Of a stretch of 34,688 bases of DNA, positions 8,171-26,478 are shown piece after piece. The notes beneath the pieces were generated by a model. It worked only from the letters and a program-made list of their open reading frames with translations, did not search any database and had not been told where the DNA came from. Each line of letters begins with the position of its first letter. The first letter of the stretch is position 1. A program made the position numbers and the translations under genes. The DNA comes from Bacteriovoracaceae bacterium (lineage in GTDB: Bacteria; Bdellovibrionota; Bacteriovoracia; Bacteriovoracales; Bacteriovoracaceae): NCBI GenBank assembly GCA_049599895.1, contig JBMYPC010000014.1, positions 1 through 34,688 of the forward strand, written 5' to 3'.

Positions 8171-9040
8171 ATGTTTAAAAAAGTCGCAATTGTGGGCGGT
8201 ACCCACGGAAATGAATATACCGGAGTCTATCTTGTTAAGCATCTCGAGAAACATCCTGAGAAGCTTAATAAGTTTTCCTATGAAATCCAAACCTATATTG
8301 GAAACCCAGAAGCTTACAAAGCGAATAAAAGGTTCTTAGAAGAAGATCTCAATCGGTCTTTTGTGGATAAGAACTTAAAGGATCAACCAGAGAGTCTTGA
8401 GGGCAAGCGCGCCCGAGAAATGCAAGAGATTCTAAGGGATAAGGAAGCCGTGGACTTTCTTATTGATCTTCATACAACAACTTCAAACATGGGAAAGACA
8501 GTGGTTCTTTCAAAGACGGATGTTCTGACTCATGCCTGTTGCCAATATTTAAGCGAAAAGATGCCAGATATTAAGATTATTGATGATGAGCGGGTCAATG
8601 AGGAGTCTTATTTTGTGAATAAGATTGCCCCTGCTGGAATTTTGATTGAGGTTGGGCCAACTCCCCAGGGTGTGTTAAGAGCTGATGCTTATAATGGAAC
8701 AAGCGAGATCCTTGATCATATTCTAGATTTCCTTGAGCTTGTTAAAATTGGAAAGCTTGAGCTTAAGGAATCGATTTGCGAATATGATTTTGAGCGCTAC
8801 AAAGAGCTCGAGACAATTGAATATCCTGTGGATGAAAACGGTGAGCTTGCGGGTATCATCCATTCTGAGCTCCAAGATAAGGACTTCGAACTCATTAAAT
8901 CTGGAGATCCTCTGTTTCAGCTTTTTAGTGGAGAAGTTATTCGCTATGATGGTGAGCCTTTCTACCCAATATTCGTAAACGAGGGTGCCTACTATCCAAA
9001 GAAGCTTGCCTTCACCAAGACCATAATCAAAAAAGACTAA
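8171..9040 (+). CDS. Aspartoacylase (AstE/AspA family Zn deacylase)
   Basis: GGTHGNE, DLNRSF, DLHTTTSNMG, IEVGP and FVNEGAYY motifs. Confidence 0.92.
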   Translation: MFKKVAIVGGTHGNEYTGVYLVKHLEKHPEKLNKFSYEIQTYIGNPEAYKANKRFLEEDLNRSFVDKNLKDQPESLEGKRAREMQEILRDKEAVDFLIDLHTTTSNMGKTVVLSKTDVLTHACCQYLSEKMPDIKIIDDERVNEESYFVNKIAPAGILIEVGPTPQGVLRADAYNGTSEILDHILDFLELVKIGKLELKESICEYDFERYKELETIEYPVDENGELAGIIHSELQDKDFELIKSGDPLFQLFSGEVIRYDGEPFYPIFVNEGAYYPKKLAFTKTIIKKD

Positions 9041-11085: not shown

Positions 11086-11973
11086 ATTAGCAACACGGGA
11101 CACTGGTATGCATTCATAGCCTTTTTTAGCTGGGGGATCTTACCTTTATATTGGAAAAGTATTGATTTTCTAGAAGCAGATGTAATTCTTGCTTATCGTA
11201 TAATTTTGTCTGCCATATCGATGTGCCTTTTTTATTTGTTGATTAAAAAAGGCAGAATGATTTTCGATATCCATCAAGTGTTAAAACATTTCCTTCCCTC
11301 TTTCTTTCTAGCGTCGAATTGGTTGATTTTTATTTATGCTGTGAATGAAGGACATCTTTTGGAGGTTGGATTAGGGTATTATCTCGCTCCAATCCTCAGT
11401 TGTGGAGTTGGGTTATTCCTATTTCATGAAAAAGTTAATTTGTTTAAGGGTCTTGCTATCTTTCTCGCGTGTGTAGGTGTTTTTTACTACTCTTTTTCTA
11501 TTGGTAGATTTCCAACCCTAGCAGTTTCTCTCGCTGTGACTTTTGTCCTTTATGGTGCTTCAAAAAAAATGGTAAAAACAAACCCTACAGAATCTTTGCT
11601 CTATGAATCTCTTGCGCTATTCCCCATTGCTCTTGCTTATGCTTTCCTTAAAGAGAAAAATATCAGTATGGTTGAATTGACATGGTCACAGGAAACCTTA
11701 GTTGCGATATCTGGTATTGTTACAGTTGTTCCTTTGATTTGGTTTTCTAGGGCGGCAAAACTATTGGAGTTCAATGTTCTTGGCTTTTTTCAATATATTG
11801 GGCCGACTACAAATTTTTTCTTAGCTTTATTTGTATTTAAAGAGAATTGCTCATCTGAGAAAATGGTAACTTTCATATTTGTTTGGTCGGCAGTTCTTAT
11901 TTTTATTTTTAGTCACAAACTTTCTTTTAGACTCGATGAATGGCGTAGTAACTTTCTCGAAAAAGTGAGCTGA
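11086..11973 (+). CDS. rarD: RarD-like EamA/DMT transporter (probable ATT start at 11086)
   Basis: The frame upstream of the track start gives ISNTGHWYAFIAFFSWGILPLYWK; NWLIFIYAVN, LGYY and GFFQYIGPT are RarD motifs. Confidence 0.85.
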   Translation: MSNTGHWYAFIAFFSWGILPLYWKSIDFLEADVILAYRIILSAISMCLFYLLIKKGRMIFDIHQVLKHFLPSFFLASNWLIFIYAVNEGHLLEVGLGYYLAPILSCGVGLFLFHEKVNLFKGLAIFLACVGVFYYSFSIGRFPTLAVSLAVTFVLYGASKKMVKTNPTESLLYESLALFPIALAYAFLKEKNISMVELTWSQETLVAISGIVTVVPLIWFSRAAKLLEFNVLGFFQYIGPTTNFFLALFVFKENCSSEKMVTFIFVWSAVLIFIFSHKLSFRLDEWRSNFLEKVS

Positions 11974-11975
11974 CG

Positions 11976-12962
11976 ATGAAAGAATCTGACATTCTAGTAA
12001 AGAAAATTTATGGTTACTATATTACACAATGTATAGGAGTGGCGGCTGAACTGGGTTTAGCTGATATACTTGGAGATAAAACACTTTCCGTTAAAGAGCT
12101 TGCTTCTGAAAGTATTGTAAATGAGGATGCGCTATATAGGATGCTAAGGTTGCTTTGTTCTGAGGATATTTTTGTCGAGGTGAAGGATAGGCATTTTTCA
12201 AATTCAAATATTTCGAAATATCTCAAGAAAGATCATGAAACAAGTTTAAATGGTCTTGCAAGGCTTCATTGTGACAAGCTTTGGTGGAACTCTTGGGGAG
12301 AACTTAGATTTTCGATTAAAGAGAACAAGCCTTCAACAGATTTTGTATTCAAGAAAGGTGCATTTCAGGTTATGAAGGAAAACAAGGAGATAAATGATAT
12401 TTTTAATTTTGCAATGACAAACTTATCTTCTCGTGATGCTCGCGCAGTAACAAAGGTGTTTGATTTTACGAAGTTTAAAAATGTAATTGATATTGGAGGT
12501 GGAGAAGGAGCTTTAATAAATGGAATTAAGAACCAACTAAGTGGGTTTAAGATAGACTTTGCTCTATTTGATCAAGGGCATGTCATAAAAAAAGTAACAT
12601 TAACTGATATTAATCTTGAGTTTGGCGACTTCTTTCAATCAGTACCTAAAGGTTATGACTGCTATATATTGAGACATATCTTGCATGACTGGAGTGATGA
12701 ACGTTGTGAAACAATTCTAAAAAATTGCGTAGAGGGAATGAAGCCAAACTCTACTTTATTGGTGATAGAACTCCTTTTAGAGAAAGGGAAGGAGTCGAGC
12801 ATTGCGAAGTACCGTGATATGAATATGTTGGTATCAATGCATGGAGGGAAGGAAAGATATATTAGCGAATATGAAAAATTGTTTTTGAGTGCAGGAGTAA
12901 AGTTAGTTGAAGTAATACCGCTCCCTGGTCAAATGAACATTCTTGTTGGAAAACGTTTATGA
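11976..12962 (+). CDS. SAM-dependent O-methyltransferase (methyltransf_2 with dimerisation domain)
   Basis: AAELGLAD dimerisation region; DIGGGEG, GDFF, ILHDWSD and GKER motifs. Confidence 0.93.
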   Translation: MKESDILVKKIYGYYITQCIGVAAELGLADILGDKTLSVKELASESIVNEDALYRMLRLLCSEDIFVEVKDRHFSNSNISKYLKKDHETSLNGLARLHCDKLWWNSWGELRFSIKENKPSTDFVFKKGAFQVMKENKEINDIFNFAMTNLSSRDARAVTKVFDFTKFKNVIDIGGGEGALINGIKNQLSGFKIDFALFDQGHVIKKVTLTDINLEFGDFFQSVPKGYDCYILRHILHDWSDERCETILKNCVEGMKPNSTLLVIELLLEKGKESSIAKYRDMNMLVSMHGGKERYISEYEKLFLSAGVKLVEVIPLPGQMNILVGKRL

Positions 12963-14059
12963 GATTAATTATTTATACTTTCCTTATTTTTTCTTGCTTC
13001 ATTAACAGGCTCAACTCCGCAACAATTGGCTATGGATATTCTTATGTGATGACTGATAGACAAGAGTTTGTATATATGGGTTTCCTAATGGGGCTAAAGC
13101 AACATTTAAATCGCCCCTTGGGGGAGAACTCTCTATTTTTAAAAAAGTCTACCGCTAAGAATATGATGAAACCATTTCATATCGCTATGGAACTTCAAAA
13201 AAATGCCGATCCTTTCATCGTTGGGTTCGCAACTAGTCACGAGGCCTTAATGGCAGCGAAAGCCATTAAGGGAAAGAAGAAGATCTTTATTTCAGCAGTT
13301 GCTAAAAGTTCAGAGCTTTCTAAATTTGGAGAAAATGTCTTTAGCATTAATAGTTCAAATGAAGATACAACTCTTGTCGCATTGAATTTAGTTAAAAAGA
13401 AACTAAATCTAAATAATGGAATAATGATTACTAATCCACACAATGCTTTCAGTAGTAACTTGGATTCACTATACCGAAAGGAGCTAAAAGCACTTGAAGG
13501 ATTAAATGTTCAGACACTGTTTACAGATCAAATGGGTAATGTCGATATCAAACAACTTAAATATATTGTGGAGCAAGGGGCTCAGTTTATTATTGTTAAC
13601 ACTTATATCAGGAGAAGTTTTGGTATTTTAGAGGGATTGAGAAAAATCAATAAAAATTTGCCATTAATTACAAATAGTTCATGGGTTATTGATGACATAG
13701 AGGAGGTGAAAAGACTTGTAACAGATAAATCACTCGATATTTATAGCTTTGAAGTTATTGATAGAACAACCAAAGAGTACTCACATCTAAGCAAGTTGGC
13801 TAAGTCTGAATATGGAACAACTCCTGTTCCTCACATGGTATATGGCTATGATTTAGGTGTCGTTGTTGCAGACTTAATTAACCGAACAAAAGGAAAACTT
13901 AGCTATGAAAATATCTTAATGGAAATTAAAAAAAATAGCTGTTTTAAAATGACAAGCTCTGGAGGCTTGTGTCTGCCAAAAGAGGGAGGAAATGCAATTC
14001 GTGAGGTTTTTATCGTAAAATTCTCTAAGGGGAAAGGCTTCATTAAGGTCTCTGAATGA
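12959..14059 (+). CDS. Periplasmic binding protein, LivJ/branched-chain amino acid type; no permease nearby
   Basis: Signal peptide; FIVGFATS, IFIS-A-SSEL-NVFS and YGYD motifs; overlaps the kinase start. Confidence 0.75.
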   Translation: MRLIIYTFLIFSCFINRLNSATIGYGYSYVMTDRQEFVYMGFLMGLKQHLNRPLGENSLFLKKSTAKNMMKPFHIAMELQKNADPFIVGFATSHEALMAAKAIKGKKKIFISAVAKSSELSKFGENVFSINSSNEDTTLVALNLVKKKLNLNNGIMITNPHNAFSSNLDSLYRKELKALEGLNVQTLFTDQMGNVDIKQLKYIVEQGAQFIIVNTYIRRSFGILEGLRKINKNLPLITNSSWVIDDIEEVKRLVTDKSLDIYSFEVIDRTTKEYSHLSKLAKSEYGTTPVPHMVYGYDLGVVVADLINRTKGKLSYENILMEIKKNSCFKMTSSGGLCLPKEGGNAIREVFIVKFSKGKGFIKVSE

Positions 14060-16026
14060 AATCTAGAAGCATTCTGAAAAAGATTCTTGTTTTACAGTAT
14101 TCTACAATGTTTGTAATTGCAACAATCGCCTTTCTTTTAAACTTGTTCGCATTAACAAAAAGATCTGAGGGGCAAATCAAAACAGTTCTTTTAGAATTAA
14201 AGGAGTCAATCTCTGTTAAGAAAGAAGAACTTCAGTCGTATGATTTACTTGGGTTGAACGATGCGATTTTGATGACAATTAAAGAGATCGAGCTTCAGGG
14301 GAATAGTAGCCCTTTAATGGTTTTGTCTAAAGAGGAGATAAAGCAAGGGGAACATGTTGTGCTTGAATTAAGTCAAAATAAAGTTATTGCGACTGATTTA
14401 TCTAACCTGGAGTTCTCTGTTTGGGGATATTTAACCAATGAATTAACTGTAATTATTTTCGCAACAACCTTAGTGTTTTTTATTATTAGTGCTTTTACTT
14501 ACAGAATCTTAAAGAAAGACATACTGAATCCAATAAAAGAAGCTATAAAACTGATGCATGTTGCACAGTTCTCTGGACTGGATAAAGTTACTGCTCATGG
14601 AGAGATTCGTTTTCTTCTTGATAATATTAAAAATTATCACCGCTCAGCCTTGGCAAAAGAAAGTGAGAAGCAAATGTTCGACATGGCAAAGAAGGTTGCC
14701 CATGATATTCGTTCACCTGCTGCAGTTCTCGATATTGCTGTAGCTGAAACGAGTGGTATAGACCCTGCCCAAAAAAGAGTTTTGAGAGAGTCTGTTTTAC
14801 GAATACAAGATATTGCAAATAATTTACTAGAGAATAATCGTAAGTTCGAAAGCAACAACATCAATGAAGCAATTCTTGTTCTGCCACTAATTAACAAAAT
14901 TATTAGTGAAAAACGGTTACAGTTTAGAAGTAATTCAAACGTGAATATTCATGTTCTTGTTAAGAAGAACTCATACTTTGCTCATGCAGAGATAAATCCC
15001 AATGAGCTTAAGCGTGTCATATCTAACATTGTTAACAATTCTGTTGAAGCCATAGGAAAAGATTTAGGAGAAGTCTGTATCTGTCTTGAACAGACTGAGA
15101 AACAAGTTAAAGTTCAAGTGATTGACAATGGTCCAGGAATTCATCGTTCAGTTGTAGAGGCTGTAAATCACAAAAAACCCATTAGTTATGGAAAGTCAAA
15201 TGGAAATGGACTTGGCCTATTATCCGCCAAATCGTTTGTTGAGCATATGGGTGGAAGTTTTAATTTAAACTTAAATTCAGAGGGAGGAACGACAGTTGAA
15301 ATGGTATTCCTTAGAGGTAGACCTCCATTGGGTTATGTCTCGTCTTTAAAAATTGCTCAAGATTATTGCCTTGTCTTTTTGGATGATGAAAAATCGATTC
15401 ATGAGATGTGGAAAGAAAAGTTTAAAAATATAAAAAACAAAAAAATTCACATATATAGCTCTTCTGAGCTTAGGTCCTTCGTAAAGGATTATAAAGGAAA
15501 GTTCATATTATTTAGCGATTTTGATTTAAATTCCGAATGTAATGAGTCTGGCCTTGATTTAATCTCAGAATTAGAATTAGAGAATGATTCAATTTTAGTA
15601 ACGTCATACTATGATGATCCCGAGATTCGTGAGCGATCGAGGAATGCAGGAGTTTCTATTGTTCCTAAAGCACTTGCTTTGCATCTGCCAATTGAAACAC
15701 AAAATGACCTTAAAACTGTTGTTCATATTGACGATGATCTACTGGTCAGAAACATATGGAAGGCAGGACTAGAAAAGAAAGGTATTAAATATGTCTCCTT
15801 TGACTCACCAAATGAGTTATTAGGTAGTTTACAGAGTTTGTCAAAGGATTGGAGTTTTTATATCGATTATGACTTGTCTAGTGAGATAAGTGGTGTGGAG
15901 TTGTCAGAGGTTCTTTTTAGCAAAGGTTTTAAGAATCTTTATCTCTCAACCGGCTTTGAAGCCTCGGAGTTTCATAATGTTTCTTATCTTAAGGGGGTTG
16001 TTGGAAAAGAATTACCTGTGCACTAA
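14056..16026 (+). CDS. Hybrid sensor histidine kinase A (TM-HisKA-HATPase-REC-REC)
   Basis: KVAHDIRSP, SNIVNNSVEA, DNGPGI and GNGLGL motifs; two receiver domains (LDDE..SDF..TS..K; IDDD..ID..STG..K). Confidence 0.93.
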   Translation: MKSRSILKKILVLQYSTMFVIATIAFLLNLFALTKRSEGQIKTVLLELKESISVKKEELQSYDLLGLNDAILMTIKEIELQGNSSPLMVLSKEEIKQGEHVVLELSQNKVIATDLSNLEFSVWGYLTNELTVIIFATTLVFFIISAFTYRILKKDILNPIKEAIKLMHVAQFSGLDKVTAHGEIRFLLDNIKNYHRSALAKESEKQMFDMAKKVAHDIRSPAAVLDIAVAETSGIDPAQKRVLRESVLRIQDIANNLLENNRKFESNNINEAILVLPLINKIISEKRLQFRSNSNVNIHVLVKKNSYFAHAEINPNELKRVISNIVNNSVEAIGKDLGEVCICLEQTEKQVKVQVIDNGPGIHRSVVEAVNHKKPISYGKSNGNGLGLLSAKSFVEHMGGSFNLNLNSEGGTTVEMVFLRGRPPLGYVSSLKIAQDYCLVFLDDEKSIHEMWKEKFKNIKNKKIHIYSSSELRSFVKDYKGKFILFSDFDLNSECNESGLDLISELELENDSILVTSYYDDPEIRERSRNAGVSIVPKALALHLPIETQNDLKTVVHIDDDLLVRNIWKAGLEKKGIKYVSFDSPNELLGSLQSLSKDWSFYIDYDLSSEISGVELSEVLFSKGFKNLYLSTGFEASEFHNVSYLKGVVGKELPVH

Positions 16027-16816: not shown

Positions 16817-17134
16817 ATGGAAAGCATAATTAGTATTTACAGAATTAAAAACAGTGGAAAGAAGCATGTTGAGGATTTAGTCCAAACTCTAACAGAAAGG
16901 TTTGAGGATTCTTTAGAAACATTGGATGAAGCTGGAGTAAAAATTGAAAGCATTTTCATAAAAAATGATCGATTATATACCTACAAACTTGTTAGAAATA
17001 TAGAAGAGATGAGGAAAATTCAAAAGAGCTCAAATAAAGCAATTCATTCAATCATTAGGCCAATTGTTCAAGAATATCTAGAGTTTGAAGAAGAGATAAT
17101 TGCAGAAATAAACTTTATTGTTTCTTCTTTATAA
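16817..17134 (+). CDS. Small hypothetical protein (DUF6176-like, dimeric alpha/beta barrel)
   Basis: ETL-EAGVKIESIF pattern; 105 aa; GAGAG RBS. Confidence 0.6.
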   Translation: MESIISIYRIKNSGKKHVEDLVQTLTERFEDSLETLDEAGVKIESIFIKNDRLYTYKLVRNIEEMRKIQKSSNKAIHSIIRPIVQEYLEFEEEIIAEINFIVSSL

Positions 17135-18410
17135 CCCCAGGATAATACTTCTCAAAGAAAACAGAAGTCTCTTTAGGATCAGCTCTTAAGAATGTCTTTA
17201 TATGTGGAATCAAAAGAAGTCCTGGAACAAGTAACAGAACCCCTGTGCCCATCATTTGTAAGGTGACTTTGGTATTATAAGATTCAATTATCAATCCAGC
17301 CAAAGCAATTCCAATAGGTTTTATACCTCTTGTAAAAAACTGCAAACTCGAAAAAATTCTAGAACGATAATGATCTGGAATTGATAGTGCCATTTGAGTT
17401 TTTATAGGAATATTTGTAATCGAGCATCCAATACCGAAGATTAATAAGAGAAATGGTAAAATATAAGAGTTCGATATCAAGGAAAAGAGAATAAATGATG
17501 ATGAGATAAGGAGTGTACCAAGTATTAATACTCCGTCAGCTTTAATTTTACGACAAAGGTATCCAATAAATAACCCGCCCAGAATTGCACCGATTCCTTG
17601 GCCAGCCTGTGTAAGCCCATATACCCAAGAATCATGATTAAGGTCAGACTTTATTAAAACAGGGAGAACTATAACGAGTGGCGAGATAGAAAAATTAATA
17701 AACATCGCAACTAAACTTAACCCAAATAGAGTCGGAAGTTTAAAGAGAACTCTCAGTCCATCAATAATTTCTTCTGCGAATGAGGAAATTTTAAAACTTT
17801 TCAAGACAGGCTTCTTAGACGCACTAGAGGTTGTCTTGACTTTCATAAAAGCAGCTAAGAGAGATGCAATAAAAAATGTTGATGCATCTAAAATAAAAGC
17901 CTCTCCGACACCAAGAAAGGCAACAATTAAACCCCCTGTAGCGCTTCCAATGATTGCTCCTAGGGAAGTGATAATTTGAGAGTGTCTCATTGCGTGAAAA
18001 AGATGTTTATCTGCAACTAATTGAGGAACAATGCTATTTTCAATACTAAGGAATAAAGCTGAGCCAATGCCATACAAAATAAAGATAATTATCACCAGCG
18101 GTAGATAGAAGATGTCCATAAAGACCATTATGCTAATAATAACAATGAGTGATCCTCTCCATATGTCACTAATAATGGCAATCCCTTTACGTGAAAACCG
18201 ATCACCTAATGGTCCAAGAATGGGTAAGAGAGCGTAATTGAAAAATGACAAAGGTGCAATAATAGAAGACATAACTGTCGCGGAACCTGTTTTCTCTAAA
18301 ATCCACCAGGCAATAGCAATTGTGTTTATGGAATCGCCGGCTCCTGAAATGAACTGACCAATTCTAAAAAGCCAGAAGCTTTTTCCAAGGGTTTTGATTT
18401 GGTTTAGCAT
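17115..18410 (-). CDS. MFS transporter (EntS/macrolide-efflux-like, about 12 TM)
   Basis: GQFISGAGD, GPLGDRFSRK and IPDHYRSRIFS motifs; ATG 18410 avoids overlap with the kinase (track start 18452). Confidence 0.9.
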   Translation of the reverse strand: MLNQIKTLGKSFWLFRIGQFISGAGDSINTIAIAWWILEKTGSATVMSSIIAPLSFFNYALLPILGPLGDRFSRKGIAIISDIWRGSLIVIISIMVFMDIFYLPLVIIIFILYGIGSALFLSIENSIVPQLVADKHLFHAMRHSQIITSLGAIIGSATGGLIVAFLGVGEAFILDASTFFIASLLAAFMKVKTTSSASKKPVLKSFKISSFAEEIIDGLRVLFKLPTLFGLSLVAMFINFSISPLVIVLPVLIKSDLNHDSWVYGLTQAGQGIGAILGGLFIGYLCRKIKADGVLILGTLLISSSFILFSLISNSYILPFLLLIFGIGCSITNIPIKTQMALSIPDHYRSRIFSSLQFFTRGIKPIGIALAGLIIESYNTKVTLQMMGTGVLLLVPGLLLIPHIKTFLRADPKETSVFFEKYYPGVIKKKQ

Positions 18411-18423
18411 AACTAAGGCCTTT

Positions 18424-20478
18424 TTAAGATTCCCAGGGAGGGGTTTTGCCAATGACCTTCTTTATAAATGGAGAATCTTTTAACTCCTTATCGATATGTC
18501 CTGTCGATAGTATTATGTGATGGTACCCTTTTCGAAAAAGCTGCTCCGCGATCTCAAGGCCTCTCGTATCATCACCAAGTTCCTGGTCGATATAGAAGAT
18601 ACTATCAAAAGGAATAGTCGAAAGTTTTGGTTCAAGCTCTTGAAAACGGGAGAAGCTTAAGAGATTGATGCTTTGTTTTTTTGCTTGAGCTTTCCATGTT
18701 AGTATGACTAGAGGATCATCATCTAAGTGGACTATAAGCTTATTTTTATGATTACTCAGGGGAACACTTTTCACGGAAACATCCATAATCATATTTTTGG
18801 GAATCATCTTCAATCCCATTTCTATACACTTTTTTTGAATTTCTTCGTCTTCAAAGTGGGATGTTACTAGGACTGATTTCTTTGCAACTTGAAACTTCTG
18901 AATAAGGTCAAGTCCTGATTCATTAAATCCATTTAATTCGAAATCTGAAAGGAGAAGGAAATTGTCAGATGTCAAGCTTAAGACTTTTTCAAGTTCTTCG
19001 GGGGTGGAAATATGTACTTTTTTATTTGAAATTGACTTAAGTTTTTCAGCCCAAACTTTATGAATCGTATTCTCGTCATCGAGAATAATGACTTGAGTAT
19101 CATTGTCTAACTTTAGAGACGAAATAAACCACTTGGGTGGAAGTGCTAAAGGCAATTGTATTCTTATAGAAGTGCCCCATTTTGGGCTTGAGTTGATAGT
19201 TAGCTTACCAGAAATAGAGTTAATGTATTGGCTTGCTGAAGATAAGCCGATACCATTTCCCATAGGTTTACCATAAGTTATTTCTTTACCCTCTTTGATT
19301 TTTGTTAAAACATCATATGGTATGCCATGACCATTATCTTGAACCTCAATAACTGCCCAAGGGGATTCTGAGTATGCTTTAATTTCAATTTGTCCGTCTT
19401 TTCCGGAGATAGCTTCTGCTGAATTGTTTATAATGTTAGAGAGGACTCTTTTAAATTCGATTGGATCTAGTTTTGCAAACAGATTGTAAGAATCTTTTTC
19501 TTGGTGCAATGAAATCGTTAGGTTTAGAAAGTTTCGAAATTGAATTCTTTTTTCTGTTAACAAGCTTTCAATAAGAGGTTTTAAAGCGACGGTTCCGTTT
19601 GTTTGGGGATGAGGCCTTTCATTTTCCAAAAGGTTGTTTGCGATATCTTGTATTCTTGTTGTTGCTTCGATTATGAGAGTTTTTTTATCTGATGTAATGC
19701 CTTCCAAATCTTTTGATACCATCTCTAGTGCCGATACTGGAGAGCGAATGTCATGAGCTACACGTTTCGCTATTGTAGTTAAAGCTTTATCTTCAGTTAT
19801 TTTGATGAGGTCCTTTTTGTAATGGTCAATTCTTTTTATTGCAGAGTCAAAACCATTGAATATCGAACTAACTTCAGAGTAAGAGGTATGATCTTTAAGC
19901 TTATATAAGTCGATGACTTCAATATCTGATTTTTCAAGGGTCTCAGCAAGATAAGTAATTGATTTTGAGACGTTCTTTCCGATCATCCTTATGAGCAGGA
20001 CTTGAACAATGGATAATATAATTAGCGAAAGAAATAATAAACTGATTATTTTTAATATAGCACTTTGGAAGAAACTTAGAGAGTAGGCAATTTCTATTCT
20101 CGCTGCAATGTTCTCTTTGTTTTCATCGAAGAAGATTTTAGATGAAATTCTGAATATATTGTCTGTGTCACCTGTTTTTGAGAAATTGCATATTATAGTA
20201 CCATCCTCTCTTAGGATGTTTACTAAAAGAATGTCGCTATCTTGAAAAACGGCTTTGCATTTTCTGTAAACTTCGCTGTCCCTCCCAATTAACACATCAT
20301 TTAAAACACTTTCTTGAAAAAGGTTGTGAAAGTTTTGAAGTTGAGATCTGAAATGAGATTGAATCTGATTGTTGAGTATTAAATAACAAAGTAATGAAAA
20401 AAGAATGAATACCAAAATGTTCACAAGGTAAGTTGGAATTAGGAATGCTTGCCGGATACTAAGCTTTTTAATTTTCAA
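18424..20478 (-). CDS. Hybrid sensor histidine kinase B (paralog of kinase A)
   Basis: RVAHDIRSP, SNIINNSAEA, DNGHGI and GNGIGL motifs; two REC domains; probable TTG start 20478 after AAGGAAG (track start 20523). Confidence 0.93.
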   Translation of the reverse strand: MKIKKLSIRQAFLIPTYLVNILVFILFSLLCYLILNNQIQSHFRSQLQNFHNLFQESVLNDVLIGRDSEVYRKCKAVFQDSDILLVNILREDGTIICNFSKTGDTDNIFRISSKIFFDENKENIAARIEIAYSLSFFQSAILKIISLLFLSLIILSIVQVLLIRMIGKNVSKSITYLAETLEKSDIEVIDLYKLKDHTSYSEVSSIFNGFDSAIKRIDHYKKDLIKITEDKALTTIAKRVAHDIRSPVSALEMVSKDLEGITSDKKTLIIEATTRIQDIANNLLENERPHPQTNGTVALKPLIESLLTEKRIQFRNFLNLTISLHQEKDSYNLFAKLDPIEFKRVLSNIINNSAEAISGKDGQIEIKAYSESPWAVIEVQDNGHGIPYDVLTKIKEGKEITYGKPMGNGIGLSSASQYINSISGKLTINSSPKWGTSIRIQLPLALPPKWFISSLKLDNDTQVIILDDENTIHKVWAEKLKSISNKKVHISTPEELEKVLSLTSDNFLLLSDFELNGFNESGLDLIQKFQVAKKSVLVTSHFEDEEIQKKCIEMGLKMIPKNMIMDVSVKSVPLSNHKNKLIVHLDDDPLVILTWKAQAKKQSINLLSFSRFQELEPKLSTIPFDSIFYIDQELGDDTRGLEIAEQLFRKGYHHIILSTGHIDKELKDSPFIKKVIGKTPPWES

Positions 20479-22003
20479 CTTCCTTTTTAGTAGACCACAA
20501 TATTTTCCATAATTCACTTTCATATCGAAAATTCGTTTCAGGAATTGTTATTGCTTTTCTATGTATAACAGGAACGTTTATTCGATAAAGAGGGATAATA
20601 AACCATTGATCTTCAAATTCTCTAAACGCTGAGGAGTAAAGGTTAAGTCTCATTGACTGATCAGTGGTAAATCGAATGTCGTTGATCTTTTCAAAAAAAT
20701 GATTGTTAGGAAAAACTCCATATCTTAGTGGCGATGTTGGTTTTATAATGTCAATAAAGCCATCAGGGTCGGGGAAGTTCCCAAAGTATCGACCACCTAT
20801 AATATCATAGTTGTTATTAGCCATATGCTTTACTAGTGTGTTTGGGGTCGCTTTTATCAAATTGATTTCAGCCCCAAGTTTATGAAAAATTTCTGTGATA
20901 GAATCAAAGAAAGAGTCAGTGAAAACGCTCTTCATCAATACGATGTTGATTTTCTTATGGCTGAGGGATCGACCCCACCTCTTTTTTACCTCATTAATTG
21001 ATGTGACGTACTTTTCTCTTTTATAGTATTTTAATGGCATCACTCCTTTTGGAAGAAAAGTGGGGGAGATTTCGTGCAGAAACGACTTATTGCTAGAGAA
21101 TCTTGCTTCTTGCATTATTAAGGAGGCAATATCTTTGCGAATTTCTTTTTTCAAGAACAGTTTTGAGGTGGCGTTGAAGTACATGTGAGCGATCGCTAAA
21201 GAGCGAGATTTTGTGATCAAGGTGTTTTTGGGGAGGGAGAGATTTTCCAATTCAGACAAAGGTAGTCCGAGAGCAATATCTAACAGACCTTTTTTGAATA
21301 GTTGAAATGCTTTTCTTGTTGTTTCAATAGACCTAACTGATATTGAATTCAGTTCTGGCAAGTTGCCTTTATAAAGTTCATTTTTATTGAATTCCCACCG
21401 CTTTGATTTTGAGTTGAAGTTGTTTGTCATTGGTCCTGAGAAACGATGATCTTCCTTTGATAAAATAGCAAAACCAGGCATAGATAGAACATGTAAAAAA
21501 GGGGGGTATGGTTTGATTAGTTTAATACTTAATTTTGTAGGAGAAAGAACTTGAATAGATTTGTGAATTTTACCCTTTTTAATGGTTTTATCTTCTGCAA
21601 GTAATGGTTTTAGATAACCAGCGACCATAGAGTTATGCCAGAAGTGTCTAGAAATACTGATTGCGACATCTTTAGCTGTCACTCTTTTTTTTAGATGATG
21701 AAAGAAGGCATCTTTTACGATTTCGAACTCGTAGACTGAGCCATTTTCTTTAATCTTCCATTTCTTCGCGAGATCTCCAACAATTGTACCTTTTTCAGAG
21801 ATTCGAACAAGTGTTTGGCTGGTGCATTGAAGTAGTAAAAAGTGTTCCATAAAGGCAAGTTTTGTGGGATCTAACGTTTTTGGTAGATGGGTGATTCCAA
21901 CTTCAAGCATAGAGTTTTCTTTTCTGAGGTTAACTTTTTCAAGTGCCTGAAGAGAAGTGAAACCAAAAAGTACAAACATAATGATAAAATTATAGAAGCT
22001 CAT
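20468..22003 (-). CDS. Family-5 (OppA/DppA-like) peptide-binding protein; no permease nearby
   Basis: Signal peptide; TLDP, TLVR, GDLAKKW, VTAKDV and IIPLY motifs. Confidence 0.88.
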   Translation of the reverse strand: MSFYNFIIMFVLFGFTSLQALEKVNLRKENSMLEVGITHLPKTLDPTKLAFMEHFLLLQCTSQTLVRISEKGTIVGDLAKKWKIKENGSVYEFEIVKDAFFHHLKKRVTAKDVAISISRHFWHNSMVAGYLKPLLAEDKTIKKGKIHKSIQVLSPTKLSIKLIKPYPPFLHVLSMPGFAILSKEDHRFSGPMTNNFNSKSKRWEFNKNELYKGNLPELNSISVRSIETTRKAFQLFKKGLLDIALGLPLSELENLSLPKNTLITKSRSLAIAHMYFNATSKLFLKKEIRKDIASLIMQEARFSSNKSFLHEISPTFLPKGVMPLKYYKREKYVTSINEVKKRWGRSLSHKKINIVLMKSVFTDSFFDSITEIFHKLGAEINLIKATPNTLVKHMANNNYDIIGGRYFGNFPDPDGFIDIIKPTSPLRYGVFPNNHFFEKINDIRFTTDQSMRLNLYSSAFREFEDQWFIIPLYRINVPVIHRKAITIPETNFRYESELWKILWSTKKEVEN

Positions 22004-23152
22004 TATAATATCTTTTTTCCTAGAGGATTCTTATTATTATATGTGGTTATTAGGATATCTCTATCCAGATAAACCTTAGTAGCTTTATACTTAGAAGAGG
22101 ATAAATAGCTTAATGCTTTAGAAGGAATCAATGACAGGAGTTGAATTACCCCATGAGATCTAAGTTTTGCAAGTCTTTCAACTCGAGATGTGTTGCAAGT
22201 GAAAAAAGTATCTTTCTTAAAGTTTTCTGGAAATATAAGTGACAAATTGCTTATGTCTGAAACTTCTTTCTTAGTTTTGAAATCTGGTGTTTCAAATTGA
22301 TAAACTTTTTTATCTCTTAAAAAACGAAAAAAAATAGGGAATATCTCCTCGAGACAGTTGTTCAACCTCAAAAGGCATAAATGTTGAAAAGTTATTGTTA
22401 AGAACTGCATCTCTATAGCTCTTTGTTTCTCGAATAATTACCCTAATTGGACAATTCTCAATATCTTGAAGGCTGTTTAAAGTTTGGTATATCTGCAATT
22501 CATAATCATTTAAAGTTTCAATACTTGATACGTAACCATGAGTCATTGCACATACAGCCTCAGTAGTGAAATCTAAGTCTGAAATTTCGTTGAGGCACTG
22601 AAGCCCGAAATTATTAAAGGTTTTTTGGGAGTCGGGGATCAAGCGTGTTTGAGACGGTAAGATGTAATCATTGAAAATCGATTCTATATCGAGAGGAAAA
22701 ACTACTAATGAATCTTTTGAGTTTGAAATAATAATATTTTCAAGGTGAAGGTCTCCAATTCCGAACCACGACAACAAAGCAACGATAGCGCCGAGGGATT
22801 CGTATTGGCTTAAAGGAACATCAGTAGAAAAAGTAGATTCGAGAGGTAAATATGTTAATGACCCTGAATAGATTTCATCCCCTGAGAAGGTGACTTCCAA
22901 ATCTGGGATAGATTGAAATGGAGAGGTTTTATTAGAATTTTTAAATATTTCGTTTATGTAGATTCGAAGTGGGCTTTTACCAGAAAGAAAAAGATATTCC
23001 CAGAAAACTGATCTCGGCTTTAAAATTTGATCAGGTCCTTGTCTAGTTACTTGGCGACCGAAGTTGTGACGGTCGCCAAAAGTTTTTTGCAAATTGTTAG
23101 GCAGCTTAGATTGTATCAACTCCAACAACCTCTTCTTTTTCAACTTCTTCAA
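22003..23152 (-). pseudogene. Stand-alone LanM-type dehydratase domain (DUF4135), split by a 1-nt frameshift (or sequencing error) at A8 22327-22334
   Basis: GDRHNFGRQV, LKPRS, GIGDLHLENII, PLDIESIF, RVIIRETKSY and QLSRGDIPYFF motifs; removing one base joins ORF 22003..22410. No LanC cyclase domain. Confidence 0.82.
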
Positions 23153-23174
23153 TTTCTACAATTGTTACGTTCAT
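23106..23174 (-). CDS. 22-aa putative RiPP precursor MNVTIVEIEEVEKEEVVGVDTI
   Basis: Not in the ORF track; AAGGAGA RBS; first ORF of the operon, overlapping the DUF4135 start; acidic leader-like stretch followed by GVDTI. Confidence 0.65.
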   Translation of the reverse strand: MNVTIVEIEEVEKEEVVGVDTI

Positions 23175-23226
23175 GATACATTCTCCTTGATGTGATTATT
23201 TGGACTAATAAAAGCCAAGTGATGTC

Positions 23227-23254
23227 ATTTTATGTAAAGCAAGATGATAGTCAA
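23227..23254 (-). promoter_or_regulatory. Putative sigma-70 promoter of cassette B
   Basis: Minus strand TTGACT-N16-TAAAAT upstream of the peptide RBS. Confidence 0.45.
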
Positions 23255-23343
23255 GGTAAATATAATTAATTGAAATTTTTAGTGTTTTGTTAATGAAACG
23301 ATAGTGTTTTAGAACTGAAACGGGGATAGGAAAACAACACGTT

Positions 23344-24501
23344 ATGAAAGCGTATTTAAACAATTTTTCTCTTCAAGTAATAATATCCACGCTACCAAAT
23401 AGTATTATCGTAGTGTTCATCCCTCTCTTCCTTGAACACTTAGGCATTCAAGGGGTTTATCTTGGGTTAGCCTTTACGAGTGTTAGATTATTGTCAATTC
23501 TAGGGGGGCTCTCAACTCCATACTTCTTAAGGCGATTTCCTCCAAGTTCGGTTTCATTTGGAGCAGAAGTCCTTAATTTTGGACTCATTGTTGTTGCGAT
23601 TCTGGCACTTCATAATACTTTCGGTGCTCTTTTTTTTATTGCAATAATATTAAAGGGATCTTCAATAGGGTTAATTAATACTACTAGGTTCTATTGGCTG
23701 AAGAATCTCGAAGATAAAACCTTATCTAAAAGAATTTTCATTGCAGTGAACTCAATCTATCAGTCTACATATGGCCTTGCTGGAGTTCTTTATCTTTATC
23801 TAAGTGAATGCGAAAATATTCTTTATTATCTCTTGTATATCGATGCTTTTTCGTCACTTTTAGGAGCTTTTCTATTTTATTCCTTAAGATCATTTAACGT
23901 AAGAGAACAAGAAGTTAACTCTAGCGTTTCAAAGTTTTTTGAAATTTTTCGATTTCCATTTGCCTACCTTACTTTAATGGATTTTACCTTTGCCCTGGCA
24001 ATGGGAGGGATTAATGTGTTGTTAGTGAAATATGGGAGCGTTTATCTTGAAAACTTTGGAGGGTATGGAGGAGCCCTCTTAATTTATGGGATATTTTATT
24101 TTCTTGGAGGTGTTTTTATTAATAAAAATAAAAATGATCAATTCTATGACCGGTTATTCAGGTCCCCATATATATCTTTAGGACTATTGTTAGGGTTTTC
24201 TCTTCTTGCAATTGGTAGTGATAGAGTCTTCTTTTCTATTTTGGGGTTAGTATTAATCTTTTTTTTAGGGCCAGTTTATTCTCTTGTAATTCAATCGAAA
24301 TGGTTGGACTTGAGCCCAGGGGCGGAGGCTTCCCAATATTTTGCTTCGAGGACATTTTTAGTTCAAGTTGTAATGGCTGTTGGTGAATCTTTGTATGCTG
24401 CTTTAAGCAAAGACATATATATAAGAATTTTACTTGTTGTGATTTTCTTTCTTTTGAATGTTTTTGTTTCAAAGAAAATAGCATCAACAGAAAGGTCTTA
24501 A
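23344..24501 (+). CDS. Divergent MFS-like transporter
   Basis: 385 aa with about 12 hydrophobic segments in two halves; divergent from the peptide operon. Confidence 0.75.
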   Translation: MKAYLNNFSLQVIISTLPNSIIVVFIPLFLEHLGIQGVYLGLAFTSVRLLSILGGLSTPYFLRRFPPSSVSFGAEVLNFGLIVVAILALHNTFGALFFIAIILKGSSIGLINTTRFYWLKNLEDKTLSKRIFIAVNSIYQSTYGLAGVLYLYLSECENILYYLLYIDAFSSLLGAFLFYSLRSFNVREQEVNSSVSKFFEIFRFPFAYLTLMDFTFALAMGGINVLLVKYGSVYLENFGGYGGALLIYGIFYFLGGVFINKNKNDQFYDRLFRSPYISLGLLLGFSLLAIGSDRVFFSILGLVLIFFLGPVYSLVIQSKWLDLSPGAEASQYFASRTFLVQVVMAVGESLYAALSKDIYIRILLVVIFFLLNVFVSKKIASTERS

Positions 24502-24558: not shown

Positions 24559-26235
24559 TCAAATCAATATTCTATAAGTCATCGATCCTGCTTTCCCAAA
24601 TTTCATATAGATATCTCCCAACCCTTTACCTTGGAGAACCCAAGACAATTTGACCTCATTCGAGTTGGCATCAATAACATTAAACATATTGTTAGAAATG
24701 ATATAGTTTTGAGTTCTGCCTTCGAGATGAGGAATTTCTCTTTTTTGAGGAGAGTTCACAATTTTTAAAGTCTCACTTTCGAATACAACAAAAGGTTGGT
24801 TTCCGACTTTGTTTTTTAGAGAGACCTGGGATCCATAAGTCGGTAGAGCTCCCTTATTTTCTACAATGATATCTAATCTATGTAAGTCCTCATTTATAGC
24901 TTCAACCTTTGTCTCTTTTATATTTAAGATTGGTAATGACAGGGCCAGCTCTATTGTGGAATTTGCATTTTTCTCAACTACTTCTTCTAAGAATTCAGTG
25001 GGAGGATTTGTAAAGATTTTTAAAAACCTCCAGCCTCCGATTTCTACTTCACCAAACTGTGGATGATTAAATTTTGTCCATTCCTTAAAGTATTTTTTGA
25101 TGATTGACTTCTGATCTAGGAATTTCCATATAGCTTGTTGATCACTCTCGCTATATCCATGGAATGCATCCTTTAAGTAATCTTTCTTTTCTAGACCAAC
25201 GACATCCTTTATATTCCATAATTCTGTGCAAAAGGTAAATATTCCTCTATCGCTATAGGCCCACTCTAGAAATGATCCAGTCATTTTGATATTTGGGTGA
25301 TATTTGAAATCATGATTAATGCTTACACAGTCATAGTTGGTGATCTGTTTTGAGATATCTCCCAGTTTTTTGTAAACGAATAAGTCATGTGGGTCCATCT
25401 CTGAGTCAGGTAAGTTCGCAAAGGGCCTGAGGGTGACTCCTGAGAAAGTGTGAAAGGATTGGAGTGTAAAGATATTTTTGCGTTCAACAATTGCTTCAAC
25501 AACAGTTCTTGTTTCAATTTGATCTAATGGGAACATTCCTGCTCCTGCTGTTTGAGCATCTCCACGCCAATCAGCTGGAAAGTTTCGATTGAAGTCTAGG
25601 CCATGCTGATTACCCTCAGTTATCTTGTGGCCATCATAATTTTCTACTAAACCTTCATTAAGAAGGTTGTAGTAATCTTGATCGTCCTCAAAATCATTTA
25701 AACCTCTGGGCACCATAAGGTTCGGGTTTTGAGTGCTGATCTTCCATCTTCCGTTTGGATCCTTAATCCTCATGGTTAAGGCTTCATTGTCTCCATCTAA
25801 ATCTTTTTCATGAAATCCACTAGGAAAAGGGACGTCAGGGTAGCCTTTTGGAGATGAACGGATGTACCTTCCAGATTTTAAAACATGCTCCGTCCCGTCT
25901 GGAGAGATTCGAGGAAGTATATAGACTGTATAGTTTGATAAAATAAAGTCGACCTTTTTAGAGCTATTGGGATTTTCGAGTAGCAGGTGTGCTGTATGTA
26001 CTGCTGCTTGTGTCGTTGCAAGTTCCATTGCATGGGTACCTCCATCAATCCATAGGGCGGGTCTCTCATTATGTGGCTTTTTAGACTTATCGTAGATGGT
26101 GAGAAGAAATATCTCTCTCCCTTCTTCTGTTTTTGCTAGAGTTTCAAGGTCGCACTTTTCAGAATATTTTTCATGTAAGTAAGATAGAAGGCTTTTGAGC
26201 TCAGAAAAGTTTAAATACTTATTTGGACAATACAT
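24559..26235 (-). CDS. M14 family zinc carboxypeptidase
   Basis: DGGTHAMEL (HxxE), DFNRNFP, SFHTFSG and FTFCTELW motifs; ATG 26235 after AGGAG (track start 26265). Confidence 0.92.
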   Translation of the reverse strand: MYCPNKYLNFSELKSLLSYLHEKYSEKCDLETLAKTEEGREIFLLTIYDKSKKPHNERPALWIDGGTHAMELATTQAAVHTAHLLLENPNSSKKVDFILSNYTVYILPRISPDGTEHVLKSGRYIRSSPKGYPDVPFPSGFHEKDLDGDNEALTMRIKDPNGRWKISTQNPNLMVPRGLNDFEDDQDYYNLLNEGLVENYDGHKITEGNQHGLDFNRNFPADWRGDAQTAGAGMFPLDQIETRTVVEAIVERKNIFTLQSFHTFSGVTLRPFANLPDSEMDPHDLFVYKKLGDISKQITNYDCVSINHDFKYHPNIKMTGSFLEWAYSDRGIFTFCTELWNIKDVVGLEKKDYLKDAFHGYSESDQQAIWKFLDQKSIIKKYFKEWTKFNHPQFGEVEIGGWRFLKIFTNPPTEFLEEVVEKNANSTIELALSLPILNIKETKVEAINEDLHRLDIIVENKGALPTYGSQVSLKNKVGNQPFVVFESETLKIVNSPQKREIPHLEGRTQNYIISNNMFNVIDANSNEVKLSWVLQGKGLGDIYMKFGKAGSMTYRILI

Positions 26236-26478
26236 AAAAGAAAAGACTCCTGAAAAAGGCGACAATTGATTTTAAGTTGCTGGCACATGAGACTATCGGT
26301 TCTTTGCAATTGGACTTTATTTAACTGCAAGAATAGTTGTTACAAGCAATCTTGAGGAACTAAGTGGCCGAAATTAAAGAGGTCATCTCTCAAATGGTTT
26401 AGATAAGCAATTTCAACAATATAAAGAAATACCCAACCCTGCCGATAAGATAAACACAAGAAATATTAAGGACCATAG

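Follow-up and report, generated by a model that had tools for sequence, protein, structure and literature searches.

Cassette B and its gene row

The 34,688 bp stretch of contig JBMYPC010000014.1 (positions 1–34,688, forward strand) of a Bacteriovoracaceae bacterium (assembly GCA_049599895.1), referred to here in full as the window, contains between coordinates 17115 and 24501 a row of genes that we call cassette B. On the minus strand it comprises a small peptide gene, a gene for a stand-alone LanM-type enzyme (DUF4135), a periplasmic family-5 substrate-binding protein (SBP), a hybrid sensor histidine kinase and a major facilitator superfamily (MFS) transporter, and a further membrane protein gene is transcribed divergently (Table 1). 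A preliminary description of this DNA, made from its letters and open reading frames (ORFs), had proposed this minus-strand operon, and all of the genes are located where it placed them.

The peptide stop codon is 14 nt from the start of the DUF4135 gene, for which we use the TTG codon at 23092, as in gene call P0001, and in relatives the two genes abut or overlap. The DUF4135 gene is spread over two frames (ORFs 22310–23152 and 22003–22410), and its stop codon is overlapped by the ATG of the SBP gene (TAATG). A Pfam scan of the window identified no LanC domain and no ATP-binding cassette (ABC) transporter gene in the gene row, and no immunity gene in the cassette.

A 52-aa ORF on the minus strand (23205–23363) was considered as the peptide. 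We rejected it for its Cys content, its overlap with the beginning of the divergent gene, and the lack of any counterpart in other loci. Because of the Cys and the missing counterpart we take the 22-aa ORF to be the peptide previously described as Cys-free, and its translation indeed has no Cys.

Table 1. Features of cassette B in the window.
Feature	Coordinates	Strand	Evidence and remarks
Precursor peptide gene, 22 aa, MNVTIVEIEEVEKEEVVGVDTI	23106..23174	-	ORF translation; AAGGAG 7 nt 5′ of ATG; no Cys
Stand-alone LanM-type kinase/lyase gene (DUF4135), ~360 aa if read through, frameshifted	22003..23092	-	Pfam E 1.5e-13
T8 homopolymer, frame break GDIPYFF / RFLRDKK	22327..22334	-	Intact homologues have DIPYFFRF unbroken
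SBP_bac_5 protein, 511 aa, periplasmic family-5 SBP	20468..22003	-	Pfam E 4.4e-28
Hybrid sensor histidine kinase, 699 aa	18424..20523	-	HATPase_c E 9e-17; Response_reg 31.5 bits vs cut-off 30.2
MFS transporter, EntS/Mef (DHA3-like) type, last operon gene, candidate peptide exporter	17115..18452	-	Pfam MFS_1 1e-32, MFS_3 1e-29
Divergent MFS-like membrane protein, 385 aa	23344..24501	+	Full-length match to Fluviispira MFS_1 protein, 29% identity, E 1e-39
Sigma70-like promoter candidate TTGACT-16-TAAAAT	23227..23254	-	~50 nt 5′ of peptide ATG; chance-level site frequency

The enzyme corresponds to the LanM dehydratase core

A word-indexed search with a 280-aa piece of the enzyme recovered 20 relatives of 317–381 aa at 30–39% identity, annotated as DUF4135 only and including one from Silvanigrella paludirubra. 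Aligned with 15 homologues, both ORF pieces of the window are colinear with intact proteins of 320–381 aa. A family profile was built from the relatives and searched against 1.84 billion representatives, giving 387 proteins at E ≤ 1e-30 (50% identity representatives), 601 at E ≤ 1e-10, and 2483 at E ≤ 1e-3; the best 150 family representatives are all 260–407 aa long. No fused or longer relative of at least 645 aa was found at E ≤ 1e-3 among the 5702 candidates of a word search with the homologue P0002 as query, which is weak evidence, and in Pfam neither ORF piece of the window has a LANC_like match.

Among solved structures the profile matches only LicM2 and CylM. The GDxH motif of the family aligns with CylM D252/H254, the lysine of KPR with K274, DLHxEN with D347/H349/N352, the aspartate of DIE with D364, and IRVIxRxT with R506/T512. 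Mutagenesis of CylM has shown D347, H349, N352, D364, and K274 to act in phosphorylation, and D252, H254, R506, and T512 in phosphate elimination. Each of these nine residues is kept in 35–41 of 41 signalling-type enzymes (those accompanied by sensing or MFS genes, see below), and the window copy has all nine.

An AlphaFold (AF2) model of P0002, a 39%-identical homologue of the window enzyme, has a pLDDT of 86.3 and a pTM of 0.90. Structurally it comes closest to CylM (Foldseek E 5e-7; VIA Z 14.6 and root-mean-square deviation 3.5 over 276 aligned residues, CylM 243–685) and LicM2 (VIA Z 13.8, Foldseek E 5e-6), and the PI3K and PI4K lipid kinases follow at VIA Z 10–11. The window protein scores 38.3 bits against NCBIfam TIGR03897, for which the cut-off is 304, and thus lies outside the curated LanM family. 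From the profile, residue, and fold matches to CylM and LicM2 we conclude that the enzyme, as far as alignment and modeling define it, is the catalytic core of a LanM dehydratase domain that lacks the first ~245 residues of CylM and lacks the cyclase. The LanM dehydratase motifs without a cyclase domain that had been noted in the window are in this way confirmed by the Pfam scan, the catalytic-residue alignment, and the structure match.

Recurrence of the gene set

A scan of named genomes, with one genome per species, identified 19 loci of which 17 are strong. They are in the Bdellovibrionota (Bdellovibrionales, Pseudobdellovibrionaceae, Oligoflexus, Fluviispira, and Pseudobacteriovorax) and the Myxococcota. 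The preliminary description had suggested a search for DUF4135-only genes near SBP_bac_5 and kinase genes. A Pfam scan of 130 neighbor ORFs showed that 13 of the 17 loci have SBP_bac_5 beside the enzyme gene and that 11 have a HATPase_c kinase no more than two genes further on. In a sample of the Bdellovibrionota the family is present in 32 of 401 genomes, 30 of the 337 high-quality genomes, and 27 of 204 genera.

A metagenome scan yielded 136 relatives, of which the best 80 were kept. The pooled set comprises 145 loci, which group into 115 enzyme clusters at 90% identity. Neighbors were assigned using hidden Markov models (HMMs) derived from Pfam-checked seeds. In 55 clusters the enzyme gene is followed by a gene for a DTW-domain protein, in 41 it is within 6.5 kb of an SBP, kinase, or MFS gene, one has LanC as its sole assigned neighbor, and 18 have nothing assigned, most of these being on short contigs. 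The linkage to SBP_bac_5, histidine kinase, or MFS genes that was predicted for homologous loci is therefore present in 41 of the 115 enzyme clusters.

At least three gene orders are seen. In the first the enzyme, SBP, and kinase genes follow one another as in the window, and in the second the SBP gene is divergent and the kinase gene is ~1 kb downstream (L008 and L017; L numbers designate loci and G numbers genomes). The third is a six-gene order on one strand, in which genes for a sigma54 response regulator, an MFS_1 protein of ~392 aa, SBP_bac_5, the kinase, a short peptide, and the enzyme are found in ten genomes (L138–L146 and L154). The regulator has a REC-AAA+ architecture, and HTH_8 was scored in L143. 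Pfam confirms both the regulator and the MFS protein in seven of these loci (L138, L139, L140, L142, L143, L146, L154). In L141, L144, and L145 Pfam confirms the regulator only, and the MFS assignment derives from our home-made HMMs; the L141 MFS ORF was outside the Pfam scan, those of L144 and L145 have no Pfam match at E 1e-4, and the L144 ORF is itself an HMM seed. The earlier designation of a ‘minimal’ module calls for an amendment here, in that these genomes add the sigma54 response regulator.

In two loci MFS_1 and SBP_bac_5 are fused within one ORF of ~880 aa (L030:5284–7932, in G005, and L082:6037–8661), and such a fusion would tie the exporter to the receptor. The arrangement as a whole is far beyond chance, as it recurs in dozens of distant genomes, and the retention of the parts while their order shuffles is as expected of parts that work together.

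One further locus, L153 in G278, has a radical SAM gene (1341–2159) directly upstream of the family enzyme and no SBP or kinase nearby. It may represent another context for a peptide that is made on the ribosome and modified after translation (RiPP).

The precursor peptides

Small ORFs were compared by applying a motif pattern to those whose end falls anywhere from 130 nt ahead of the enzyme start to 45 nt past it. Immediately upstream of signalling-type enzymes these ORFs contain, in their C-terminal part, the motif hydrophobic-(D/E/N)-hydrophobic-x-x-hydrophobic-(E/D), followed by a tail of 9–24 aa. A motif ORF is present in 33 of the 40 assessable signalling clusters, as the preliminary description had anticipated for homologous loci, and in none of 47 DTW-linked clusters, one of the 18 unassigned clusters, and not in the single LanC-only cluster. 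The window peptide fits the pattern with VEIEEVE as leader and KEEVVGVDTI as tail, in which there is one Thr, two residues from the C-terminus. Other C-terminal sequences include IDLKTLEYEARGPATGITSG, IDLDALEKEMSHSGVTVSSG, VDVDAVEASAATAPSTFPTVTQ, and IDMDSLESEMKTVHTTDF, and examples of short whole peptides are MENVEIIIDLANLEASANTNQSETGF, MEIVYIDLEALEAEAESHNAGLSSAG, and MNENTIIELSEIEEVQSAPTSW. Nearly all tails have a Ser or Thr within the last five residues (read from the lists, with no statistical test), most tails lack Cys, and the short peptides are linear and strongly acidic.

The precursors have two forms. The long form is 70–126 aa and begins with what appears by eye to be a Sec-type signal peptide, with a K/R-rich start, a hydrophobic stretch, and an AxA-like site. 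The short form is 22–28 aa, has no signal peptide, and accompanies MFS genes in the window, Fluviispira, G005, L037, L082, and the ten six-gene loci. We regard this co-occurrence as the strongest reason to think that the MFS proteins are the exporters of the peptide. Export by MFS proteins, as first suggested, would apply to the short form, and many other precursors (70–126 aa) have a Sec-type signal peptide instead. A Pfam search of seven long precursors (L002, L004, L006, L010, L012, L013, L017) found no family, and NHLP and Nif11 leaders are absent from them.

Fluviispira multicolorata has an unusual precursor (L016:7761–7979) with six tandem leader motifs, five being MDLDKLEC and the last MDLDKLE, followed by the tail IKSFKFFGTVL.

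DTW-linked enzymes and lanthipeptide-like variants

In a second enzyme clade of ~350–420 aa the enzyme gene is always followed by a DTW-domain gene (L005, L007, L011, and ~55 clusters among L039–L110), with Pfam DTW matches of E 1e-38 to 1e-41 in L005 and L007. It is found in the Myxococcota (L005, L007, L011, with the DTW gene instead of SBP and kinase genes) and dominates the metagenome contigs. The clade is tight and has good support (SH-aLRT 99, 34 rows) in a quick, midpoint-rooted IQ-TREE tree that excludes 38 rows below 300 aa, three broken genes, the 261-aa piece from the window, and two duplicates. No small peptide is shared upstream of the DTW-linked enzymes, where the genes vary and some are HRDC-like by eye.

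The DTW clade bears on a further explanation, according to which the small ORF is not the substrate and the enzyme has another target for phosphorylation (a lipid or nucleotide, or else a protein, for example the SBP or the kinase), the peptide being either an unmodified signal or a regulatory leader ORF. The clade has the same catalytic residues and no motif peptide, the fold is that of lipid kinases, and the family lacks the first ~245 residues of CylM. Nonetheless, the peptide gene ends 14 nt from the enzyme gene in the window and abuts or overlaps it in relatives, Ser/Thr residues are conserved near the peptide C-terminus, the elimination Arg and Thr are kept, and there are variants linked to LanC or with Cys-containing cores. 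We consider this explanation improbable, and the least probable of those discussed here.

Two types of lanthipeptide-like variant are present. A stand-alone LANC_like gene is beside the enzyme gene in Pseudobacteriovorax (L018:6664–7791, before the peptide and enzyme genes) and in G006 (L028:8860–10035, after the enzyme gene), and L018 also carries an SBP and a kinase. In G010 (L029:1225–3116) and G310 (L135), a 59-aa ORF ending in SAFAAAESVACMTTFMCGPLTTLCTT, a Cys/Thr-rich and lanthipeptide-like core, precedes a ~590-aa version of the enzyme whose C-terminal extension belongs to no known family; in L029 a family-2 glycosyltransferase gene follows. The gene contents of these loci suggest that they are split or variant class II lanthipeptide systems, and they argue that the family dehydrates Ser/Thr residues of peptides.

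These variants are also among the reasons for considering that the peptide is a RiPP whose main role is antimicrobial or related to predation, and that the SBP–kinase pair only autoinduces its production, much as two-component systems autoinduce the production of nisin-type lantibiotics. Bacteriocin clusters usually contain genes for a RiPP enzyme, a precursor, an exporter, and a two-component system, and the hosts belong to predatory lineages. However, the cassette has neither an immunity gene nor an ABC exporter, its constant partners are sensing genes rather than immunity genes, and the peptides are short, linear, strongly acidic, and free of Cys, unlike typical membrane-active lantibiotics. 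A mainly antimicrobial role thus appears unlikely.

Binding protein, kinase, and transporters

The window SBP has an N-terminal signal peptide by eye. Its sequence matches in the Protein Data Bank are AapF (6.7e-12), NikA, and OppA, with a weak match to PrgZ (3.8e-4), and its NCBIfam matches, which are NikA-like, are all far below the cut-offs. No ABC permease or ATPase gene is beside the SBP gene, which adjoins the kinase gene, and the same SBP-then-kinase order recurs in other loci. In the window kinase two transmembrane segments flank a periplasmic domain of ~100 aa and are followed by a DHp domain with His257, HATPase_c, and two receiver-like domains. The SBP-adjacent kinases are orthologous along their whole length and have invariant D76, G80, C89, and C112 in the periplasmic domain.

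The mature SBP was modeled together with kinase residues 50–152. The ipSAE is 0.59 (runs of 0.60, 0.55, and 0.59, with the best control at 0.00), which counts as a weak pass, as do all passes up to 0.60. In the calibration of this score, which did not include alignments made for this analysis, 116 of 157 solved complexes came up to the mark, as did 2 of 215 mismatched pairs. The partners have pLDDT values of 84 or more, and no fewer than 90% of contacts are common to the runs. The model lends weak support to a docking of the SBP on the kinase periplasmic domain.

The SBP and kinase could alternatively sense an external cue, such as prey oligopeptides or metal-chelate complexes, with the peptide and enzyme as a co-regulated output. 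The nearest solved relatives of the SBP bind nickel/opine and oligopeptides, and the source genome has other SBP and hybrid-kinase pairs without an adjacent peptide gene. The peptide, enzyme, SBP, and kinase genes nevertheless stay together through at least three gene orders in many families, and the MFS–SBP fusions link export to binding, so that we regard an external cue as unlikely, to the same degree as a chiefly antimicrobial peptide.

Four paralogous hybrid kinases of the cassette B type are present in the source genome, including those on contigs C94 (L156:6072–9510) and C220 (L155:1551–3686). On C94 an SBP_bac_5 gene (475 aa) precedes the hybrid kinase. The contig ends 412 nt upstream of this pair, the third SBP–kinase pair of the genome, and a motif peptide is absent from that interval. 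The window itself contains another gene group on the plus strand at 11206–16026 (Cassette A), which encodes an EamA transporter, an O-methyltransferase (Methyltransf_2 E 2e-38), a Peripla_BP_6 protein, and a hybrid kinase. Its kinase and that of cassette B are paralogous (38% identity, residues 212–696) and differ in the periplasmic part, and Cassette A may be a small-molecule counterpart of the peptide cassette.

The transporter at the end of the operon scores 202 bits against NCBIfam TIGR00900, below the cut-off of 319.6. The divergent gene was likewise put forward as an MFS gene, and although the 385-aa protein has no Pfam match of its own, it matches L016:6570–7739 over its full length, and the two genes occupy the same place in the window and in Fluviispira. 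It is the counterpart of the ~390-aa MFS_1 gene of Fluviispira and the ten six-gene loci.

Interruption of the enzyme gene

The frameshift in the enzyme gene that the preliminary description reported is evident from the homologue alignment. One extra T in a T8 run breaks the DUF4135 frame within the conserved DIPYFF/RF motif, 3′ of all of the catalytic residues, and the ~105 residues lost correspond in the model to a helix and four strands. A contig from a second assembler and the probable source sample, a seawater metagenome, has 0 differences over 21800–23400 at a depth of 9.4. As this contig uses the same read set, all it shows is that the extra T is not peculiar to a single assembler. The contig is from run X1; runs X2 and X3 gave no cover of the region, and none of the RNA runs listed contains the stretch. 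There are eight other A/T runs of at least 8 in the window (nine with the frameshift run), of which five are in open frames (11562, 13928, 21685, 23630, 24259) and three are in unannotated regions.

The zero-frame codon after the T8 run is TCG, which together with TCC is the rarest Ser codon here, and a rare TCG at this position would fit a +1 shift. In our rough estimate, which is a matter of judgement, an inactivating mutation that is real is the most probable explanation and somewhat better than an even bet, an error is a good deal less likely, and expression corrected by slippage is the least likely of the three. With its enzyme gene broken, the strain may produce the peptide in unmodified form or be confined to listening, unless slippage corrects the run.

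Precursors that are small and without a signal peptide are found together with MFS genes in five loci outside the six-gene order, namely the window, L030 (G005), L037, L082, and L016. In three of these (the window, L030, and L037) the enzyme gene alone is interrupted and the receptor genes are open, and it is intact in L082 and L016. The L030 gene has a frameshift among A/T homopolymers at ~8500–8530, and that of L037 an in-frame TAG at 2066–2068. An apparent break in the L015 enzyme gene reflects a run of N at a scaffold gap.

A proposed peptide signalling circuit

Taken together, the evidence makes it probable that the cassette encodes a circuit that signals through a modified ribosomal peptide and belongs to a family found across the Bdellovibrionota. 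The cytoplasmic ~350-aa enzyme would recognize the leader motif and use ATP to phosphorylate a Ser/Thr of the tail, and the phosphate would most likely be eliminated to give dehydroalanine or dehydrobutyrine, the alternative being a retained phospho-Ser/Thr. The peptide would exit through the MFS proteins, and in other lineages presumably through Sec, since those precursors carry signal peptides. A protease would trim the leader. The periplasmic OppA-like protein is then envisaged to bind the tail and to dock on the small, disulfide-containing periplasmic domain of the kinase, which would signal through its own receiver domains. In the ten six-gene genomes the kinase would act on the sigma54 response regulator encoded in the operon, with probable feedback on the operon itself.

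If the peptide is the substrate, then dehydration is probably the outcome rather than a phospho-peptide, as judged from the retained residues, because the elimination Arg and Thr are kept whereas EmbM, which stops at phospho-Thr, has lost its elimination residues. According to what is reported of salivaricin 10, this peptide retains phospho-Thr although its LanM has both elimination residues, and the kept Arg and Thr do not therefore decide between the dehydro and phospho forms.

Several observations weigh against such a circuit. The enzyme gene is broken in the window and in the short-peptide loci L030 (G005) and L037, and the window tail KEEVVGVDTI, which is unusually acidic, contains one Thr. 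Seven of the 40 signalling loci fail the motif pattern; by eye L006, L009, L036, and L142 have variant motifs, and L014, L149, and L150 have no convincing peptide. The DTW clade, the largest with 55 clusters, keeps every catalytic residue and lacks a motif peptide, so the enzyme family does not strictly need a motif-peptide substrate. No protease is consistently linked to the module among the loci compared. Sigma70-like sites occur at chance level (28 found versus 26.4 expected in shuffles), and there is no convincing sigma54 site upstream of the peptide gene in a scan with 127 matches of three or fewer mismatches against 111 expected. Finally, the comparison loci are mostly from metagenome-assembled genomes. 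Terminator counts in the region are also at chance level.

As to peptidase genes, an M14 zinc carboxypeptidase (E 2e-34) is encoded at 24559–26265 on the minus strand of the window and adjoins the cassette, with no recurring link to the module seen elsewhere. In L014 an S9 prolyl oligopeptidase gene follows the SBP gene in place of the kinase gene.

A broader interpretation is that of a phylum-wide and previously undescribed peptide quorum sensing in Gram-negative predators, in which a minimal LanM enzyme of ~350 aa would turn a C-terminal Ser/Thr of the leader-bearing peptide into a dehydro or phospho residue, with MFS or Sec export, capture by a dedicated OppA-like protein, and readout by a kinase and a sigma54 regulator. 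The enzyme-only disruptions (the window, G005, and L037) would then mark signal-blind ‘listener’ or phase-variable strains. We offer this tentatively, putting its likelihood a little short of even.

To our knowledge, peptide pheromones are textbook in Gram-positive bacteria and almost unknown in Gram-negative bacteria, and cell–cell signalling in Bdellovibrio-like predators is largely uncharted. In the open-access literature and preprints we found no description of DUF4135-only genes together with SBP_bac_5 or kinase genes, or in the Bdellovibrionota. If the proposed circuit exists, it would provide a testable peptide signalling circuit in the Bdellovibrionota, a new ligand class for kinase-coupled family-5 binding proteins, and a new family of RiPP precursors that carry a recognition motif of 7 residues. 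The enzyme would then be the smallest known LanM-type Ser/Thr kinase/lyase, and it could help in peptide engineering and in understanding how leaders are recognized. An intact locus (L016) is present in Fluviispira multicolorata 33A1-SZDP, a cultured host.

Comparison with known systems

The enzymes share with the LanM proteins CylM and LicM2 the fold, the P-loop GDxH, the Lys, the DxHxxN catalytic loop, the Mg-binding Asp, and the R-x5-T elimination pair. They differ in being ~350 aa long rather than ~990 aa, in having no LanC cyclase, and in their association with precursors without Cys. Relative to CylM they lack the first ~245 residues and part of the 373–472 insert, and in the sequence comparison with CylM and LicM2 the C-terminal part of the family (a helix and four beta strands) aligned to nothing.

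EmbM, which makes phospeptin in ‘Ca. Eudoremicrobium malaspinii’, is similar in being a cyclase-less LanM-like enzyme with a Cys-free precursor and a linear modified peptide, and kinase and response-regulator ORFs are reported in its cluster. As EmbM is described, and the comparison is with the description, it lacks the elimination residues and stops at di-phospho-Thr, whereas the window family keeps these residues. The EmbA precursor is described as having a Nif11 leader and a Gly-Gly site, in contrast to the 7-residue acidic motif that serves as leader in the window family, and the EmbM descriptions available report no SBP partner. In the dehydrazoles a DUF4135 domain is reported to be fused to a class III cyclase and to work with a YcaO protein (PMC10676384). 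PoyF of the polytheonamide pathway, also compared by description, consists of a LanM-type dehydratase domain on its own and acts on one Thr, which it dehydrates. It differs in being part of a large proteusin cluster, in which the leader is of the NHLP type and many further enzymes are encoded, and for which the description gives no sensing genes.

Sensor kinases that depend on binding proteins include LuxP–LuxQ and TorT–TorS. As with these, a periplasmic binding-protein gene is beside a kinase gene without transporter genes, and the window SBP has weak sequence similarity to the pheromone-binding OppA homologue PrgZ. SBP genes adjacent to the kinases that they activate have also been reported (PMC11113362). 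The present system differs from the SBP-dependent kinases in that the proposed ligand is a ribosomal modified peptide from the same operon, and in having a family-5 SBP that is far from characterized members.

The proposed circuit also resembles Gram-positive peptide pheromones in the precursors of 70–126 aa with a Sec-type signal peptide by eye, the active-looking extreme C-terminus, and the OppA-type presumed receptor. Phr, PapR, and NprX are the secreted pro-peptides of this kind. Departures from them are the Gram-negative hosts, the short MFS-linked form in the window that has no signal peptide, the position of the OppA-like protein beside a kinase rather than an importer, and the presence of a dedicated ATP-dependent modifying enzyme.

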